Positions 37,275 to 62,232 of a stretch of 64,000 nucleotides of DNA are shown piece after piece. The translations under genes were made by a program, and so were the position numbers. The notes under the pieces were generated by a model, which searched no databases, was not told the DNA's origin, and saw only the letters and a list, made by a program, of their open reading frames with translations. This stretch comes from Verrucomicrobiia bacterium (GTDB lineage Bacteria; Verrucomicrobiota; Verrucomicrobiia; Limisphaerales; UBA1319): NCBI GenBank assembly GCA_963664225.1, contig OY760937.1:3936001-4000000 (forward strand). Direction: 5' to 3'. Positions within the stretch are counted from its first letter, which is position 1, and every line of letters starts with the position of its first letter.

Positions 37275-37387
37275 GAGTTTTTCGCGTTTATGAACGATTG
37301 GACGATTTGGAAACTGGTACCGCGAGGGGGTGACGGACGAAGGAATGAGCGCGAGTACGCGGAAGGCAAATCAGGGATCAGAGGGCG

Positions 37388-37529
37388 GCATAATTCCTGT
37401 TGCCAAGGCGGTGTATGGGGAGCAGGCTGCATTTGTTGTCAACGATGTGATTGCCATGAGGACGGCCCATTCATACGCCAAATCCAATCGACTGAGCTTG
37501 TTCGGTTCAGGCGGGCACAGCTCTGGAGG
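37388..37529 (+). repeat. 140-bp direct repeat, copy 2
   Basis: Matches 37030-37169. Confidence 0.92.
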
Positions 37530-37591
37530 CTGGCTTGGGAATAAATCAGCACTTGAAAAGTGAACGATATCATGGTCTGATCCCTTTACAA

Positions 37592-37705
37592 TCCGGAGTT
37601 ATGCAGTTGGTTCCGAAGTGCCAACATCCCAATATTCCCGGGGGGATATTCTGGGAAACAATGCATCCAGGAGGACCCGGAGGGTATTCGATCTGGGGAG
37701 ACTAA
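37592..37705 (+). pseudogene. C-terminal fragment of an HNH/WHH-type polymorphic toxin nuclease
   Basis: Hand translation SGVMQLVPKCQHPNIPGGIFWETMHPGGPGGYSIWGD*; MQLVP...H...H..G..GG..IWG pattern. Confidence 0.6.
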
Positions 37706-37716
37706 CCCAAAACACT

Positions 37717-38037
37717 ATGAAATTGATCGACCTAGTCACATACTTTAGACACGGAGGAACTTTCGAGGACTTCTGTAAAACGCAGGCACTCAACGCCGAA
37801 TCTGAGGTCATAGAAATCTACTCTCAGGTGCCTGTTGGCTTGGAATCGCAACTTGGATTTTTCCCCATCGAGGAAACGGAGGGGAAAGCCGAGTTTTCGT
37901 CGAATGGCGTTAAATACAAGACCCTTTTCGATTTTTTCTACTTCTTAGAAGTCATTGAAGATTTGAAAGACGCGCAGCTTCCCGAAGATGGTGAGCTTGC
38001 ACAAAAACTACTGTCATACGCATTGAAAGACGCCTAG
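37717..38037 (+). CDS. Small acidic protein, candidate toxin immunity protein (ATG 37717, 106 aa)
   Basis: Starts 11 bp after the toxin-fragment stop; acidic and aromatic; more AT-rich than flanking genes. Confidence 0.6.
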   Translation: MKLIDLVTYFRHGGTFEDFCKTQALNAESEVIEIYSQVPVGLESQLGFFPIEETEGKAEFSSNGVKYKTLFDFFYFLEVIEDLKDAQLPEDGELAQKLLSYALKDA

Positions 38038-38268
38038 CAGCCTGTTGAAGTGTATCCGTCAGACCAAGTGGCTATAGGCAATGGCCGGTCTGAACTGGTT
38101 AAATGGGGGGCGTAAAGGGGTCACCCATTAGGGCAGGGATCAACAGAATAAAACGTTGCTGCTCCGATTTTTATCTTTTTCGGTTTTTTTCTGTGGTGGC
38201 TCGATAACGCGTCTGCAGGTTCTGACTCAATCCTGCGTTTTCGTCATTAATAATTTCGGATTTCGGGT

Positions 38269-40243
38269 GTGCGCCAGTGAAATTGGTAGCCTCGTGGGTG
38301 AAAGTCCCGCCGGTCGAATTAGACGGTTCACGACCGAAATGCAGCGTCCGGGACGAGGCCGTGAGGCCGAACCACAAGCGGGACGCTGAAAGAACTGTCG
38401 GGTCGTAACGAAAGTAAACCTCATCAAATGAGCTCCGAAACCGAAATAACCGGTAAGCCGAGCCGCTACCCGAACGGCGAAGGCAGAAACGCGGCGTCAT
38501 CAAATCGTCAAATGGGCGCTGTTGATTCCGGCGGAGTCAGCGAGGGCGACACGACAGGAAGGGAAACCAAGGTAAGCTGGGAGATCTCTGGAGGCGGGGC
38601 GATAAAGCCTCAACCGCCGGTGCAAGGAGGAACACCCTCCGAGGCCGCACGGGCAGCCAGAGAAGTCGGAGTCTTCCATAGTAGCGAAGAAGCTGGGGCG
38701 ACCAAAACCCCGGCGGAGCCAAGGGAAGGCACTTGGATCGAAGCGAATCAAAACAGCGAGGGACAGGGAGATGGCCTTGAGGGAGTGGAAACACTTTTTC
38801 AACGGATAACAACCCCGATAAAAGTTCAAAAGCTGCAGCGAGCGCTATATTGCAAAGCCAAGGCTGAGCCGAAGTATCGGTTTTACAGCCTCTACGGAGA
38901 ACTGCTGCGGAAGGACGTGCTGGAAACGGCAATGGCCTCCGTGGCGCACAACAATGGCGCGGCTGGGATCGACGGGCAGACATGCGACGTCTATCTTGCC
39001 AGCGACGAAGCCTGGGACCAATGGCGGAACCAACTGCTGGAGGAGTTACGCACGAAGAAGTATCGGCCAAGCCCGGTGAAGCGTGTGTATATACCAAAAG
39101 GAGACGGGAAGCTGCGACCCCTGGGCATCCCGACAGTGAAAGACCGGGTGGTGCAGACAGCGGTGGTGATTGTATTGCTGCCGATTCTGGAAGCCGATAG
39201 TCATCCGAACAGTTACGCCTATCATCCCAAACGCAATGCCCACCAAGCAATGGAGGCGATCAAGAAGGCTACGCTGACAGGACGCGTCGAAGTTATAGAC
39301 GCGGACTTAAGCGGGTATTTTGACAGCATTCCCCACAGGCGTTTGTTGCGCATAGTGGCCAAGCGGGTCAGCGATGGAACAATTCTCAAGCTGATCGCAG
39401 GATGGCTGCGCGCGCCCGTGAATGAACCGCAAAGCGACACAGGGAAAGGCGGGACAAAGGGGGGGCAAGGTCAGAATCGACGGGGGACTCCGCAAGGCGG
39501 GGTTGTATCGCCGATTTTAGCCAATGCATACCTCAACCAGTTGGATTGGGAAGTCAACGAACGCTGCGAACTCAAACCCGTGATGGTGAGATACGCGGAT
39601 GATTTCGTGATACTCGGACAGCCGGGGCAGGGACGGGAACTGATGGAACGACTGGAACGATGGCTGAAGCAACGCGAGTTAGTGCTCAACGAGAAGAAGA
39701 CCCGCTTGGTGGACCTCCGCCAGGATGGCATCAAATTCTTGGGATTCGCGCTAACAATGCGACAGGGGAAGGGGAAATGGAAATATCCGCATGTGGAACC
39801 CCATCCCAAGAGCCAGAAGAAGTTTCGAGACGGGATTCGGGAGAAACTCAACCGAAGCACGCTATGGCGTGATATCGGAGAGGTGATTCCCGAGCTCAAC
39901 AAGAAACTCAAAGGTTGGAAGGGTTACTTTCACTACGGGAACAGCACCAAGGTGATGGGCCAGATGAACGAATACGTCAGCAGCAAGTTACAACGATGGT
40001 TGTGGCGCAAACACGGATGTAGTCGGGCGCAATGGTCCACATACCCCAAGGAGGATCTCTATGAGCGTTATGGTTTATACCAAATGCCGGAATATGCGGC
40101 ATGGAAACGATGACGTCGAAGCGATGCAACGTATGATCCCCGGAGAGCCGGATGCGGGAAAACCGCCTGTCCGGTTCGATGAGGGGCGAAATGCGACGGT
40201 CATTGGCCACGGCCATTCAATCCGTCCATTTCGCCTACTCTAC
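38269..40243 (+). mobile_element. Group II intron (IIB-like, probably bacterial class E)
   Basis: 5' GTGCG at 38269; domain V at 40145-40177 with AGC triad; domain VI with bulged A at 40237 and terminal AC; EBS1 loop ACCCGAA (38468-38474) pairs with the 5' exon. Confidence 0.92.
38785..40113 (+). CDS. ltrA: Group II intron reverse transcriptase/maturase, no C-terminal HNH domain (start approximate)
   Basis: AAGIDG, RPLGIPTVKDR, DADLSGYFDSI, GTPQGGVVSP, RYADDF, FLGF, GW..YF. Confidence 0.95.
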   Translation: METLFQRITTPIKVQKLQRALYCKAKAEPKYRFYSLYGELLRKDVLETAMASVAHNNGAAGIDGQTCDVYLASDEAWDQWRNQLLEELRTKKYRPSPVKRVYIPKGDGKLRPLGIPTVKDRVVQTAVVIVLLPILEADSHPNSYAYHPKRNAHQAMEAIKKATLTGRVEVIDADLSGYFDSIPHRRLLRIVAKRVSDGTILKLIAGWLRAPVNEPQSDTGKGGTKGGQGQNRRGTPQGGVVSPILANAYLNQLDWEVNERCELKPVMVRYADDFVILGQPGQGRELMERLERWLKQRELVLNEKKTRLVDLRQDGIKFLGFALTMRQGKGKWKYPHVEPHPKSQKKFRDGIREKLNRSTLWRDIGEVIPELNKKLKGWKGYFHYGNSTKVMGQMNEYVSSKLQRWLWRKHGCSRAQWSTYPKEDLYERYGLYQMPEYAAWKR

Positions 40244-40328
40244 TAAAGGGTTTTTCCGCGAACGGAAGATATATGGCCTGCACCTTACGGATAAGAAAAT
40301 GCCGTATCATATTAATGGAGACTCAGTT

Positions 40329-40793
40329 GTGAGAGATGGTTTTGTGCAACGCGGTGGATTGTGGGTTATGGGGCAAAGTGTGCTCATGGGGGCGGTGGCG
40401 ATTGGCGGGGTGGTCTGGCATGGCGGTTGGCACAGTTCAATACTGGTGATCGTTGGAGCGATACTACTTTGCGGTTTTGCTGTTTGTGGTATTGCAGGCG
40501 CCCGGGCGTTGGGCCGGAATCTTACGCCCTATCCCAAACCATCAGCCCATGGCCGGTTGGTGCAATCCGGAATCTACGGGCTGATGCGACATCCGCTATA
40601 CACGGCGGTGTTCTGCGCCGCGATGGGTTGGGCGCTCGTGTGGGAGAGTTGTGTCAGCCTACTTTTCGCAGTCGCTCTGGGCGTTTTCTTTAATGCCAAG
40701 GCGCGACGGGAGGAGCTGTGGCTGAGGGCGCAATACCCGGATTACGCGCAATATGAACAGCGCGTCCGGCGCTTCATTCCGTGGATATACTGA
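40329..40793 (+). CDS. Isoprenylcysteine carboxyl methyltransferase family membrane protein (start approximate)
   Basis: LVQSGIYGLMRHPLY, EELWL, Y..Y..RVRRFIP. Confidence 0.9.
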   Translation: MRDGFVQRGGLWVMGQSVLMGAVAIGGVVWHGGWHSSILVIVGAILLCGFAVCGIAGARALGRNLTPYPKPSAHGRLVQSGIYGLMRHPLYTAVFCAAMGWALVWESCVSLLFAVALGVFFNAKARREELWLRAQYPDYAQYEQRVRRFIPWIY

Positions 40794-40826
40794 AGCGCCG
40801 TTTTCCGATCTGGAGCCGACGGAGGT

Positions 40827-41570
40827 TTATTTATCGGCGACCCAGAGAATGGATTGGCGGATCAGTTTGCGGTAGTTGGGATTGACGTAAGAGAGGTGGT
40901 CGTGGCCCAGTTCGAGATAGACGACGCGGGCCTTGCCGTAAGTATGGCACCAGGCAATGGTGGGGCTGCTGGTTGGTTCCGTGGTGGTGAGCAGGGGAGT
41001 CATACCCGGGATAACGCTGAAGAAACCATAGGTTTCCTCGTGAATGTCAAAATCAGCGAGGCCTTTGGTCACGGGATGTTTGGGATCGACCACATGGACC
41101 TTTACATCGACATCGTGCTTATAGGTGGAGGCGGGTTTGTCCTGGCCGTTTTCCTTGTAGGGCTGAAGGTAATATTTGCCGCCAATCATACGGGTGTATT
41201 CAGGCCAATCCTGATAGGAGGCGATACAATGATGGGTGGCCACGAGACCCTTGCCGGACTTGATGAGGTTTTCAAAATCGGCCTTGGCCTCTTTTGAAAT
41301 GTCCTGCCAGAGATCATACAAAAGCACGACATCGTATTCTCCCGACCTGGCTGGCGTGAAGTATTCATGGGCCTTGGGGTGCTGAATCTCAATAAATGTG
41401 ATGTCCGGGATGGACTTGAAAACATCGAAAAAGGCTTCACGTTCAAAATCATGGCCGCCGGTGACCACCAGAACACGCAATTTGGGAGCGTCGGCCGCCT
41501 GGATGTTCCAAGCCAGAACCAGTCCACAAAGAGCCGTCCAAACCAAACCCAGGAAATGTTTTCTTTTCAT
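40827..41570 (-). CDS. Secreted ThuA-like domain protein
   Basis: Signal peptide; VLVVTGGHDF, HPVTKGL, EETY, ELGHD. Confidence 0.85.
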   Translation of the reverse strand: MKRKHFLGLVWTALCGLVLAWNIQAADAPKLRVLVVTGGHDFEREAFFDVFKSIPDITFIEIQHPKAHEYFTPARSGEYDVVLLYDLWQDISKEAKADFENLIKSGKGLVATHHCIASYQDWPEYTRMIGGKYYLQPYKENGQDKPASTYKHDVDVKVHVVDPKHPVTKGLADFDIHEETYGFFSVIPGMTPLLTTTEPTSSPTIAWCHTYGKARVVYLELGHDHLSYVNPNYRKLIRQSILWVADK

Positions 41571-46380: not shown

Positions 46381-46487
46381 TGTCCCGGAGGCCTGCTGAC
46401 GTAGATGGCGTTGTTGATCCCGCATGCGCGATAATATCATATTATTTAGAAGCGGCAGGGACGAAATAATTCAAAGACAGCCTTTTA

Positions 46488-46651
46488 ACCCGAAATCCGA
46501 AATAGGAACGGCCCATCTGACGCAATCATTTGGCCATCCATGGTTTGAAACCGGCTGTGGAGTATAGATTTAATACACCTTCGCCGATTGCAAATCATGG
46601 CTGTCTCAAAGCATTGCATCGTCTTGACCATTCTTATTTCGGATTTCGGGT
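46488..46651. mobile_element. MITE-like element, 164 bp, with ~24-bp terminal inverted repeats and TTA flanks
   Basis: Left ACCCGAAATCCGAAATAGGAACGG; right CCATTCTTATTTCGGATTTCGGGT; TTA directly on both sides. Confidence 0.7.
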
Positions 46652-46706
46652 TTAATGAAAGGTTCGATTTTCCAATGGTCGGAGGCAAAGTGGAGGAATT
46701 GCGCCA

Positions 46707-51601: not shown

Positions 51602-53182
<1,581 letters not shown>

Positions 53183-53341
53183 AGTATCCGGGGTAAAAAC
53201 CGGATGCAAAGTTCGAACCATGACGCAAGTTTTGGAGAGGGCTCGCTTATCGCACAATTCAATTTTTAAAAGGGTTTTGGGGAGTTCTTTGCAAACCTGT
53301 CGGGTGAGGGCGAAACCCTCTGGCGTTAAAAGGCCGGGGAA

Positions 53342-53416
<75 letters not shown>

Positions 53417-53451
53417 GGGGCCCGAAGCGGGCAGGGAGAGTTCAGCCAAGC

Positions 53452-53528
53452 GGGCCTGTAGCTCAGTTGGTTAGAGCATGCGCTTGATAAGCGCAGGGTC
53501 ACTGGTTCAAGTCCAGTCAGGCCCACCA
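53452..53528 (+). tRNA. tRNA-Ile(GAT)
   Basis: GGGCCTG/CAGGCCC acceptor stem, GAT anticodon, CCA. Confidence 0.97.
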
Positions 53529-53667
53529 TCTCCTCCACCGCACGATTTTTGACCGGAGCAATCCGGCCAGGTTCTTTGACAACTATACATGGTAAGATAG
53601 TAATAAGGGTAAAATTACAGTGAGCTGAGTTCTATTGTGTTTCTAACGAACCGATAGATATTTTTTT

Positions 53668-56527
<2,860 letters not shown>

Positions 56528-56624
56528 AATACAACAAAATGATCAATTTCTCAGTATCAGGGTAGTTTGACCCAATATCCCCATGTATAGTTTTCAGAGA
56601 ACCTGTGGTTCTTTATAACACTTT

Positions 56625-56740
56625 TTTGGTGACCATAAAGCTGTGGTCCGACCCGATCCCATCCCGAACTCGGCCGTCAAACACAGCCTTGCCGATGGTA
56701 GTACTTGTATAGCTCGTGCGAGAGTAGGTTGTCGCCAAAT
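56625..56740 (+). rRNA. rrf: 5S rRNA, copy 1
   Basis: CCCATCCCGAACTCGG, GCCGATGGTAGT, GAGAGTAGG. Confidence 0.97.
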
Positions 56741-57093: not shown

Positions 57094-58674
<1,581 letters not shown>

Positions 58675-58833
58675 AGTATCCGGGGTAAAAACCGGATGCA
58701 AAGTTCGAACCATGACGCAAGTTTTGGAGAGGGCTCGCTTATCGCACAATTCAATTTTTAAAAGGGTTTTGGGGAGTTCTTTGCAAACCTGTCGGGTGAG
58801 GGCGAAACCCTCTGGCGTTAAAAGGCCGGGGAA

Positions 58834-58908
<75 letters not shown>

Positions 58909-58943
58909 GGGGCCCGAAGCGGGCAGGGAGAGTTCAGCCAAGC

Positions 58944-59020
58944 GGGCCTGTAGCTCAGTTGGTTAGAGCATGCGCTTGATAAGCGCAGGGTCACTGGTTC
59001 AAGTCCAGTCAGGCCCACCA
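58944..59020 (+). tRNA. tRNA-Ile(GAT)
   Basis: Duplicate of 53452-53528. Confidence 0.97.
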
Positions 59021-59159
59021 TCTCCTCCACCGCACGATTTTTGACCGGAGCAATCCGGCCAGGTTCTTTGACAACTATACATGGTAAGATAGTAATAAGG
59101 GTAAAATTACAGTGAGCTGAGTTCTATTGTGTTTCTAACGAACCGATAGATATTTTTTT

Positions 59160-62019
<2,860 letters not shown>

Positions 62020-62116
62020 AATACAACAAAATGATCAATTTCTCAGTATCAGGGTAGTTTGACCCAATATCCCCATGTATAGTTTTCAGAGAACCTGTGG
62101 TTCTTTATAACACTTT

Positions 62117-62232
62117 TTTGGTGACCATAAAGCTGTGGTCCGACCCGATCCCATCCCGAACTCGGCCGTCAAACACAGCCTTGCCGATGGTAGTACTTGT
62201 ATAGCTCGTGCGAGAGTAGGTTGTCGCCAAAT
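62117..62232 (+). rRNA. rrf: 5S rRNA, copy 2
   Basis: Same landmarks as copy 1. Confidence 0.97.

Follow-up and report, generated by a model that had tools for sequence, protein, structure and literature searches.

An endonuclease-less group II intron at the outer ends of an IS1380-family insertion sequence and its MITE in a Verrucomicrobiia genome

The question raised by this locus is how a group II intron whose protein lacks an endonuclease comes to stand directly beside a short end motif of another mobile element. The DNA analysed (the window) is a stretch of 64,000 nt from a Verrucomicrobiia bacterium (GenBank assembly GCA_963664225.1, contig OY760937.1, positions 3,936,001 to 4,000,000 of the forward strand). 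It lies within a single 5.78-Mb contig, and copies were counted genome-wide by BLAST. The reading arrived at, to which a probability of about 0.86 is given, is that the intron retrohomes to the outer end of an IS1380-family insertion sequence (IS) and of its miniature inverted-repeat transposable element (MITE) by means of RNA-DNA pairing, and that it is active or was so very recently.

Anatomy and copies of the intron

The stretch 38269-40243 (+) was identified as a complete group II intron of 1975 nt that begins GTGCG and ends CTAC. These ends, together with matches to Rfam families RF02005 (group-II-D1D4-6; 38301-38546, 54.9 bits, gathering score 49) and RF00029 (domains V/VI; 40143-40243, 49.3 bits, gathering score 40), agreed with the limits given in a preliminary description made from the letters of the window alone. 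The intron open reading frame (ORF; 38785-40113, +) starts with GTG and encodes a reverse transcriptase (RT)/maturase of 442 aa with a YADD motif, which scored 357 bits against the NCBIfam group II RT/maturase model TIGR04416 (cut-off 300). RVT_1 (1e-34) and GIIM (7e-14) were its sole Pfam domains; the protein stops ~25 residues past GIIM, and no DNA-binding/endonuclease (D/En, HNH) domain was found there, as had been stated earlier. The two Rfam matches and an RT/maturase without endonuclease therefore define a complete group II intron with an endonuclease-less protein. The hallmarks of group II were all present, namely 5' GUGYG and 3' AY ends, domains V and VI, RT plus maturase (X), and pairing of exon-binding site 1 (EBS1) with intron-binding site 1 (IBS1). 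The ribozyme part outside the ORF amounts to ~650 nt.

Nineteen copies of the intron were found in the genome, each of 1975 nt and all 100% identical. The 5' exon ended TCGGA[T/G]TTCGGGT in 19/19 copies, while the 3' exon started with TAAA in ten and with TTAA in nine. Thirteen copies were hosted by the ends of a 164-bp MITE (eight at one end, five at the other) and four by the ends of a 1534-bp IS (three at one end, one at the other); at the remaining two, the window copy included, only the terminal 13-16 nt of the motif were present, with unrelated DNA upstream. It had been proposed that the intron uses the multicopy ends of another mobile element as homing sites. This proposal is supported by the flanks of all 19 copies, the other 18 sharing those of the window copy, and by the placement of EBS1 described below; the motif itself proved to be the end of a multicopy element (~22 MITE and 5 IS copies, 51 sites). 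The MITEs that adjoin introns were 92-99% identical to the window MITE, in contrast to the uniform sequence of the introns, which indicates separate and recent insertions. Occupancy stood at 4/5 IS copies versus 13/19 intact MITEs. Nineteen identical copies at one type of site suggest that the intron is capable of self-splicing and retromobility.

Contigs of four sequencing runs were compared with window positions 37300-41200. None bridged 38268 to 40244, so that no allele with an empty site was seen; those with the intron extended over no more than 7-13 nt of the 5' flank and 1 nt of the 3' flank, as expected of repeats. Among sequencing runs, no RNA run of this organism was found, the RNA runs listed containing 6-8% of the sampled words. 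One contig from a metagenome (run X5), covering 38265-40175, carried the intron with 7 differences in 1911 nt; near-identical introns are therefore present in an environmental population.

The 5' exon of the window copy ended with TTTCGGATTTCGGGT (38254-38268), and its 3' exon began TAAA. With the intron removed, the exon junction (TTTCGGATTTCGGGT joined to TAAA) was the reverse complement of 46485-46503 at 19/19 nt and also matched 46637-46651, differing in the flank only (TTAA there). Direct sequence comparison thus confirmed that the rejoined 19 nt reproduce, in reverse complement, the left end of the window MITE with its flank and nearly match its right end. The 15-mer TTTCGGATTTCGGGT occurred three times in the window versus 0.26 expected, and 0/100 shuffles reached three. 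Two vacant targets had been claimed in the window; both motif sites were indeed empty, but only that at 46637-46651 (+) lies on the usable strand.

No remainder of an IS or MITE was found upstream of the window copy, just the solitary end motif. Positions 38100-38253 were a repeated intergenic sequence with paralogues at genome positions 5343422, 1258298, 4905264, 616998 and 129478. The repeat stops with ...TCATTAATAAT, directly before the 16-nt element end, and the paralogues differ beyond TCATTAATAAT. From this break and the 16-nt element end it follows that the window copy sits at a truncated or rearranged element end.

Host elements and the insertion boundary

The 1534-bp IS was present in five copies, 100% identical, and encodes a 474-residue transposase of the IS1380 family (NF033539, 227 bits, cut-off 180; PF13701, 2.4e-27). 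Its ends read ACCCGAACTCCGA... on both sides, and a 3-bp duplication, TTA or TAA, was found at 5/5 copies; target duplications of 4-5 bp are usual in the IS1380 family. Judged by the identity of its copies, this IS has probably been active recently. The 164-bp element has no ORF and carries 21-bp perfect terminal inverted repeats; genome-wide, 19 full-length copies, three copies split by IS insertions and some fragments were found. Of its terminal 15 nt, 13 are the same as in the IS end, and it was therefore classed as a MITE of that IS type. The MITE would be mobilised by the IS transposase, and both host elements may still move and seed new intron sites.

A second IS (1858 bp, with an open frame of 566 residues) was present in six copies 99.8-100% identical (genome 264642-266499, 422550, 1726479, 2347583, 3578288 and 5100275). 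One of these sits in the middle of a MITE, in a short central stretch where 1534-bp IS copies have inserted as well.

Elements with both strict ends were bracketed by the same 3-nt duplication, TTA or TAA, in a TTAAA target in 18/19 cases. Where such elements bear an intron, the duplication matched across element plus intron in 15/16. The duplication thus brackets both, and the intron entered between the last element base and the duplication, after transposition. This result bears out the earlier placement of the insertion exactly between the inverted-repeat terminus and the TAA/TTA flank.

In the proposed mechanism the intron RNA would reverse-splice between the last element base and the duplication, with EBS1 paired to the final 7 bases at the inverted-repeat terminus, EBS2 paired to exon positions -16 to -10, and the +1 T supplied by the 3-bp duplication. 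Positions +1 to +4 are always T[T/A]AA because the element lands in TTAAA. As the insertion falls outside the last base, the element would stay uninterrupted.

A duplication around element and intron would equally be produced if the two had spread as DNA, either as a composite transposon moved by the IS1380-type transposase or by homologous recombination between elements. Spread of this kind is considered very unlikely. No inverted-repeat end was found at the 3' end of the intron, and its insertions involve either MITE end, IS ends and solitary motifs alike. Up to 8% divergence separates the adjoining MITEs, yet the introns are identical; the homology on the 3' side is just 4 nt, too short for recombination. 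Moreover, the strand pattern described below tracks the chromosome and not the orientation of the element.

Recognition of the target

The sequence ACCCGAA (38468-38474) was located in the 9-nt terminal loop of a hairpin conserved in the Rfam alignment and was complementary to exon positions -7 to -1 (TTCGGGT) at 7/7. Its assignment as EBS1 was strengthened by relatives. In four relatives with a known 5' exon the loop differs from that of the window intron, and each loop pairs with its own exon at 7/7 (4/4; Table 1). In genome G044, from which relative L004 comes, 16/16 5' junctions of the sister intron ended ATCCGTGG, complementary to its EBS1. The folding and covariation results agree with the earlier identification of ACCCGAA as the partner of IBS1.

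The sister introns (L001-L005 and those of genomes G044 and G034) were 82-87% identical to the window intron in domain I, with RTs 67-78% identical. They share with it an EBS1 retuned to the exon of each host and a T at +1 in all. EBS3 would pair with this T (IBS3). Its position was not locatable among the relatives examined, because +1 is T in every one of them.

A different account of site choice is that the intron is guided by structure, in the manner of class C (IIC) introns: it would recognise the single-stranded DNA (ssDNA) hairpin of the MITE and insert at its 3' base, and EBS1 would only fix the exact site. As ssDNA the MITE folds into a single long hairpin with the terminal 21 bp perfectly paired (-38.5 kcal/mol, z = -6.9) and the intron at the hairpin base; 16/16 copies of the sister intron in G044 stand at the edge of an ~80-bp palindrome; and the nearest solved RT is from an IIC-type retroelement (7UIM, 183 bits, versus 160 for 6ME0 and 113 for LtrA). 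Against this account, 6/19 insertions have no adjoining MITE hairpin (four IS ends and two solitary motifs), IS copies are filled (4/5) at least as often as intact MITEs (13/19), and the relatives L084 and L098 sit 20-30 nt from the nearest hairpin. A hairpin would also hide IBS1 and IBS2, which would be paired with the other arm. IIC introns have a short IBS1, are not known to have an EBS2 and depend on an upstream stem-loop; the window intron differs in its 7-nt EBS1 and 7-nt EBS2 matches. Structure guidance is accordingly judged improbable, and recognition by base pairing to the element end is preferred.

For that recognition EBS2 was sought in 38434-38447, where the preliminary description had placed it. 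Both candidate 7-mers were present: TCCGAAA (38434-38440) against exon -15 to -9, and CCGAAAT (38441-38447) against -16 to -10, at 7/7. The domain I helices around the EBS sites, aligned in six sequences, had 99.2% of cells paired and three compensatory pairs, versus at most 51% when the alignment was slid. TCCGAAA overlaps the helix GCUCCG/CGGAGU, which is kept in 6/6 aligned sequences with a U-A to C-G exchange. The CCGAAAT patch falls within an internal loop, the most variable part of domain I among relatives otherwise 82-87% identical. CCGAAAU, which leaves a 2-nt linker, is favoured because the other register overlaps the covariation-supported helix and CCGAAAU is in a hypervariable internal loop. 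EBS2 is thus most likely CCGAAAU, and the support for it comes from the window intron itself. The natural targets vary at -8, -14, -15 and -16.

Several observations concern the surroundings of the relatives. The sister intron of G044 (loci L097, L099-L113 and L114-L131; RT 76% identical) was represented by at least 16 5' and 17 3' junctions at contig ends. Its 16/16 5' exons end at the outer edge of the palindrome, which has three CACGGATNN repeats per arm, each arm serving as a site, and lies inside a ~230-bp MITE-like repeat that has ends of its own (GGGTGCAACTCAC...). The G044 site is the edge of an internal palindrome, whereas in the window genome it is the element terminus. Locus L084 (G034, contig C102, 13087-13781, -) is an ORF-less relative of 695 nt, 71% identical in domain I, that sits ~30 nt beyond a ~200-bp palindromic repeat. 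More distant relatives, with RTs 40-52% identical, came mostly from Bradyrhizobium and other Alphaproteobacteria and matched RF02003 in the four loci scanned. Judged by their 5' flanks alone, these introns lie in other repeated sequences, away from the ends of inverted repeats; the wider clade therefore does not share the habit in general. Within the window genome, four loci (1677346, 2330644, 5162225 and 5605284) matched 120 nt of the RT gene at ~76% identity and probably represent a second group II intron family.

Table 1. Positions of the intron, its sites and its host element in the window, and EBS1 loops of relatives
Feature	Coordinates	Strand	Basis or remarks
5' exon, solitary 15-16-nt IS/MITE end	38254..38268	+	IBS2 ATTTCGG at -16..-10; IBS1 TTCGGGT at -7..-1
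Group II intron	38269..40243	+	Ends, Rfam; one of 19 identical genomic copies
Domain I core	38301..38546	+	RF02005; helices supported on 6 sequences
Probable EBS2 CCGAAAU	38441..38447	+	7/7 to exon -16..-10; hypervariable internal loop
EBS1 ACCCGAA	38468..38474	+	7/7 to exon -7..-1; exon covariation in relatives
RT/maturase	38785..40113	+	RVT_1, GIIM, TIGR04416, YADD; endonuclease domain absent
Domains V-VI and 3' splice site	40143..40243	+	RF00029
3' exon TAAA	40244..40247	+	IBS3 T at +1, then remainder of TTAAA-type flank
Intact empty MITE, 164 bp	46488..46651		21-bp perfect terminal inverted repeats; TTA duplication 46485-46487 / 46652-46654
Vacant site, strand never occupied in this chromosome arm	46488..46502	-	Motif match
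Vacant site, strand occupied elsewhere in this chromosome arm	46637..46651	+	TTAA follows
EBS1 loop of L001			ACCTGAA; exon -7..-1 TTCAGGT
EBS1 loop of L003			TCCTGAA; exon -7..-1 TTCAGGA
EBS1 loop of L004			CCACGGA; exon -7..-1 TCCGTGG
EBS1 loop of L084			GCCGTAA; exon -7..-1 TTACGGC

Elsewhere in the window, two complete rRNA operons (16S, two tRNAs, 23S, 5S) were found in direct tandem at 51602-56740 and 57094-62232, with identical Rfam scores.

Strand occupancy and comparison with known introns

Genome-wide, 51 sites matched TCGGA[TG]TTCGGGT; 19 were occupied and 32 vacant, and among them no element was filled at both ends. The occupied sites fell on the + strand at 0.05-0.95 Mb (five), on the - strand at 1.66-2.19 Mb (six) and again on the + strand at 2.99-5.61 Mb (eight). 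The dnaA gene was located on the - strand at 2,990,590-2,991,069; directly upstream of it were two near-consensus DnaA boxes, and the cumulative GC skew had a local maximum near 1.4 Mb. The chromosome was split at dnaA (2.99 Mb) as presumed origin and at the skew maximum (1.4 Mb) as presumed terminus. On the presumed lagging-strand template 18/26 sites were occupied (8 vacant), versus 1/25 on the other strand (24 vacant; Fisher p = 1e-6). The sense strand of the intron is the leading strand in 18/19 copies, which argues for entry into the lagging-strand template. In the zones where the skew is decisive, the sense strand was the G-rich strand in 13/13 introns. Presumably 18 or all 19 of the copies lie on the lagging-strand template, the number hinging on the exact position of the origin.

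Most likely, then, the intron would enter the single-stranded lagging-strand template at replication forks and be copied from the nascent lagging-strand primer. Each element has the site on that template at a single end, which would explain why filling is confined to that end.

A number of points weigh against this account of pairing and fork entry. The target is a tandem repeat, ATTTCGG-ATTTCGG-GT, on which two EBS2 registers fit. The EBS2 patch paired with the relative's own exon in 0/3 tested, nor did it do so in L084 by eye, so that corroboration of EBS2 by relatives failed. The copy at 2,986,270 (+) is an exception to the strand rule: with the origin placed at the DnaA boxes, it falls ~4.5 kb to the wrong side of dnaA. 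The GC skew is flat over ~1.75-3.6 Mb, so the replication map is uncertain there, and the implied chromosome arms are very unequal, at ~1.6 and 4.2 Mb. The markers for origin and terminus were chosen after the intron strands had been seen. Finally, a scan with the sigma-70 consensus, from which the promoter type of the host may differ, gave no site either in the MITE region or in the DNA upstream of the window intron. The cumulative skew also fails to return to zero over the whole genome, and its flat stretch includes dnaA; taken with the intron strand map, it suggests very unequal arms or large rearrangements in the recent past, which may have occurred between the numerous identical repeats.

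The principle has been published for RmInt2 and ISRm17 of Sinorhizobium meliloti (PMC4615759). Copies of RmInt2 lie in both inverted repeats of ISRm17, which gives two sites on opposite strands, one of them surely lagging, and its authors state that the use of inverted repeats doubles the sites and guarantees a lagging-strand one (PMC4615759). The two systems have in common an endonuclease-less intron, a 7-nt IBS1, an IBS2 after a short linker (2 nt in RmInt2), use of both IS inverted repeats and a bias to the lagging-strand template (PMC4615759). The RmInt2 locus (L093) was retrieved by the coordinates in the supplement of PMC4615759, and the start of ISRm17 was taken from the coordinates of the paper. 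RmInt2 starts 20 nt inside ISRm17, reads inward and splits the inverted repeat, whereas the window intron is placed beyond the last base with an outward reading direction, has the target duplication as its 3' exon and leaves the element whole. The two also differ in RNA family, RmInt2 and a pSymA intron (L080) matching RF01999 and the window intron RF02005. The main host here is a MITE, with 19 intron copies versus 7 for RmInt2. Membership in class D/IIB3 (the RmInt1 and RmInt2 type) was rejected on the Rfam family and on an RT only 36% identical to that of L080.

RmInt1, found in ISRm2011-2 (IS630 family) of S. meliloti, is likewise endonuclease-less, has a multicopy IS as its natural site and is biased to the lagging-strand template; its site is within the IS and its insertion is said to block IS spread, unlike the uninterrupted element here (PMC5894124). 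The lagging-template bias has been established experimentally for RmInt1 and RmInt2 (PMC4615759, PMC5894124) and is also seen in surveys (PMC8919778). Class C (IIC) introns are again endonuclease-less and intergenic, stand directly 3' of a DNA stem-loop (terminators, attC) and show the same bias (PMC8919778). The window intron differs from them in its long EBS1 and EBS2 pairings, its larger ribozyme and its occurrence at some sites without a hairpin. Membership in class C was rejected on the 7-nt EBS1, the 7-nt EBS2 candidate and the 6/19 sites without an adjoining palindrome.

The present case is new in three respects: the intron belongs to a different lineage, its main host is a MITE, and it inserts at the outer boundary of the element. 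A literature search, with subscription journals outside its reach, found no paper that places a group II intron at the terminus of a MITE or at the boundary between an IS and its target duplication.

The RmInt2/ISRm17 strategy is thereby extended to another intron lineage and to MITEs. The homing site is composite, half transposon end and half target duplication, and the host element is undamaged; should the host elements stay mobile, the two would form a self-feeding pair of parasites. The genome also offers a natural experiment, with 51 near-identical targets in both orientations on one chromosome, 19 of them filled with identical copies under an all-or-none strand rule. The short, defined target and the compact RT could suit the study of fork-dependent retrohoming.

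A further proposal is put forward tentatively, as a possibility that may well not hold: that this lineage exploits the transposition junction, the site from -16 to +4 arising only once the element lands in TTAAA, so that the element stays mobile, the two parasites amplify each other and strand occupancy reads out fork direction. A bolder and speculative addition is that hairpins of the palindromic hosts might halt lagging-strand synthesis precisely at +1, which would provide the intron with its primer. If the proposal is true, strand occupancy would place the origin near dnaA (2.99 Mb) and the terminus near 1.4 Mb, with arms of ~1.6 and 4.2 Mb, and intron and element would amplify each other, where for RmInt1 the intron is proposed to silence its host.

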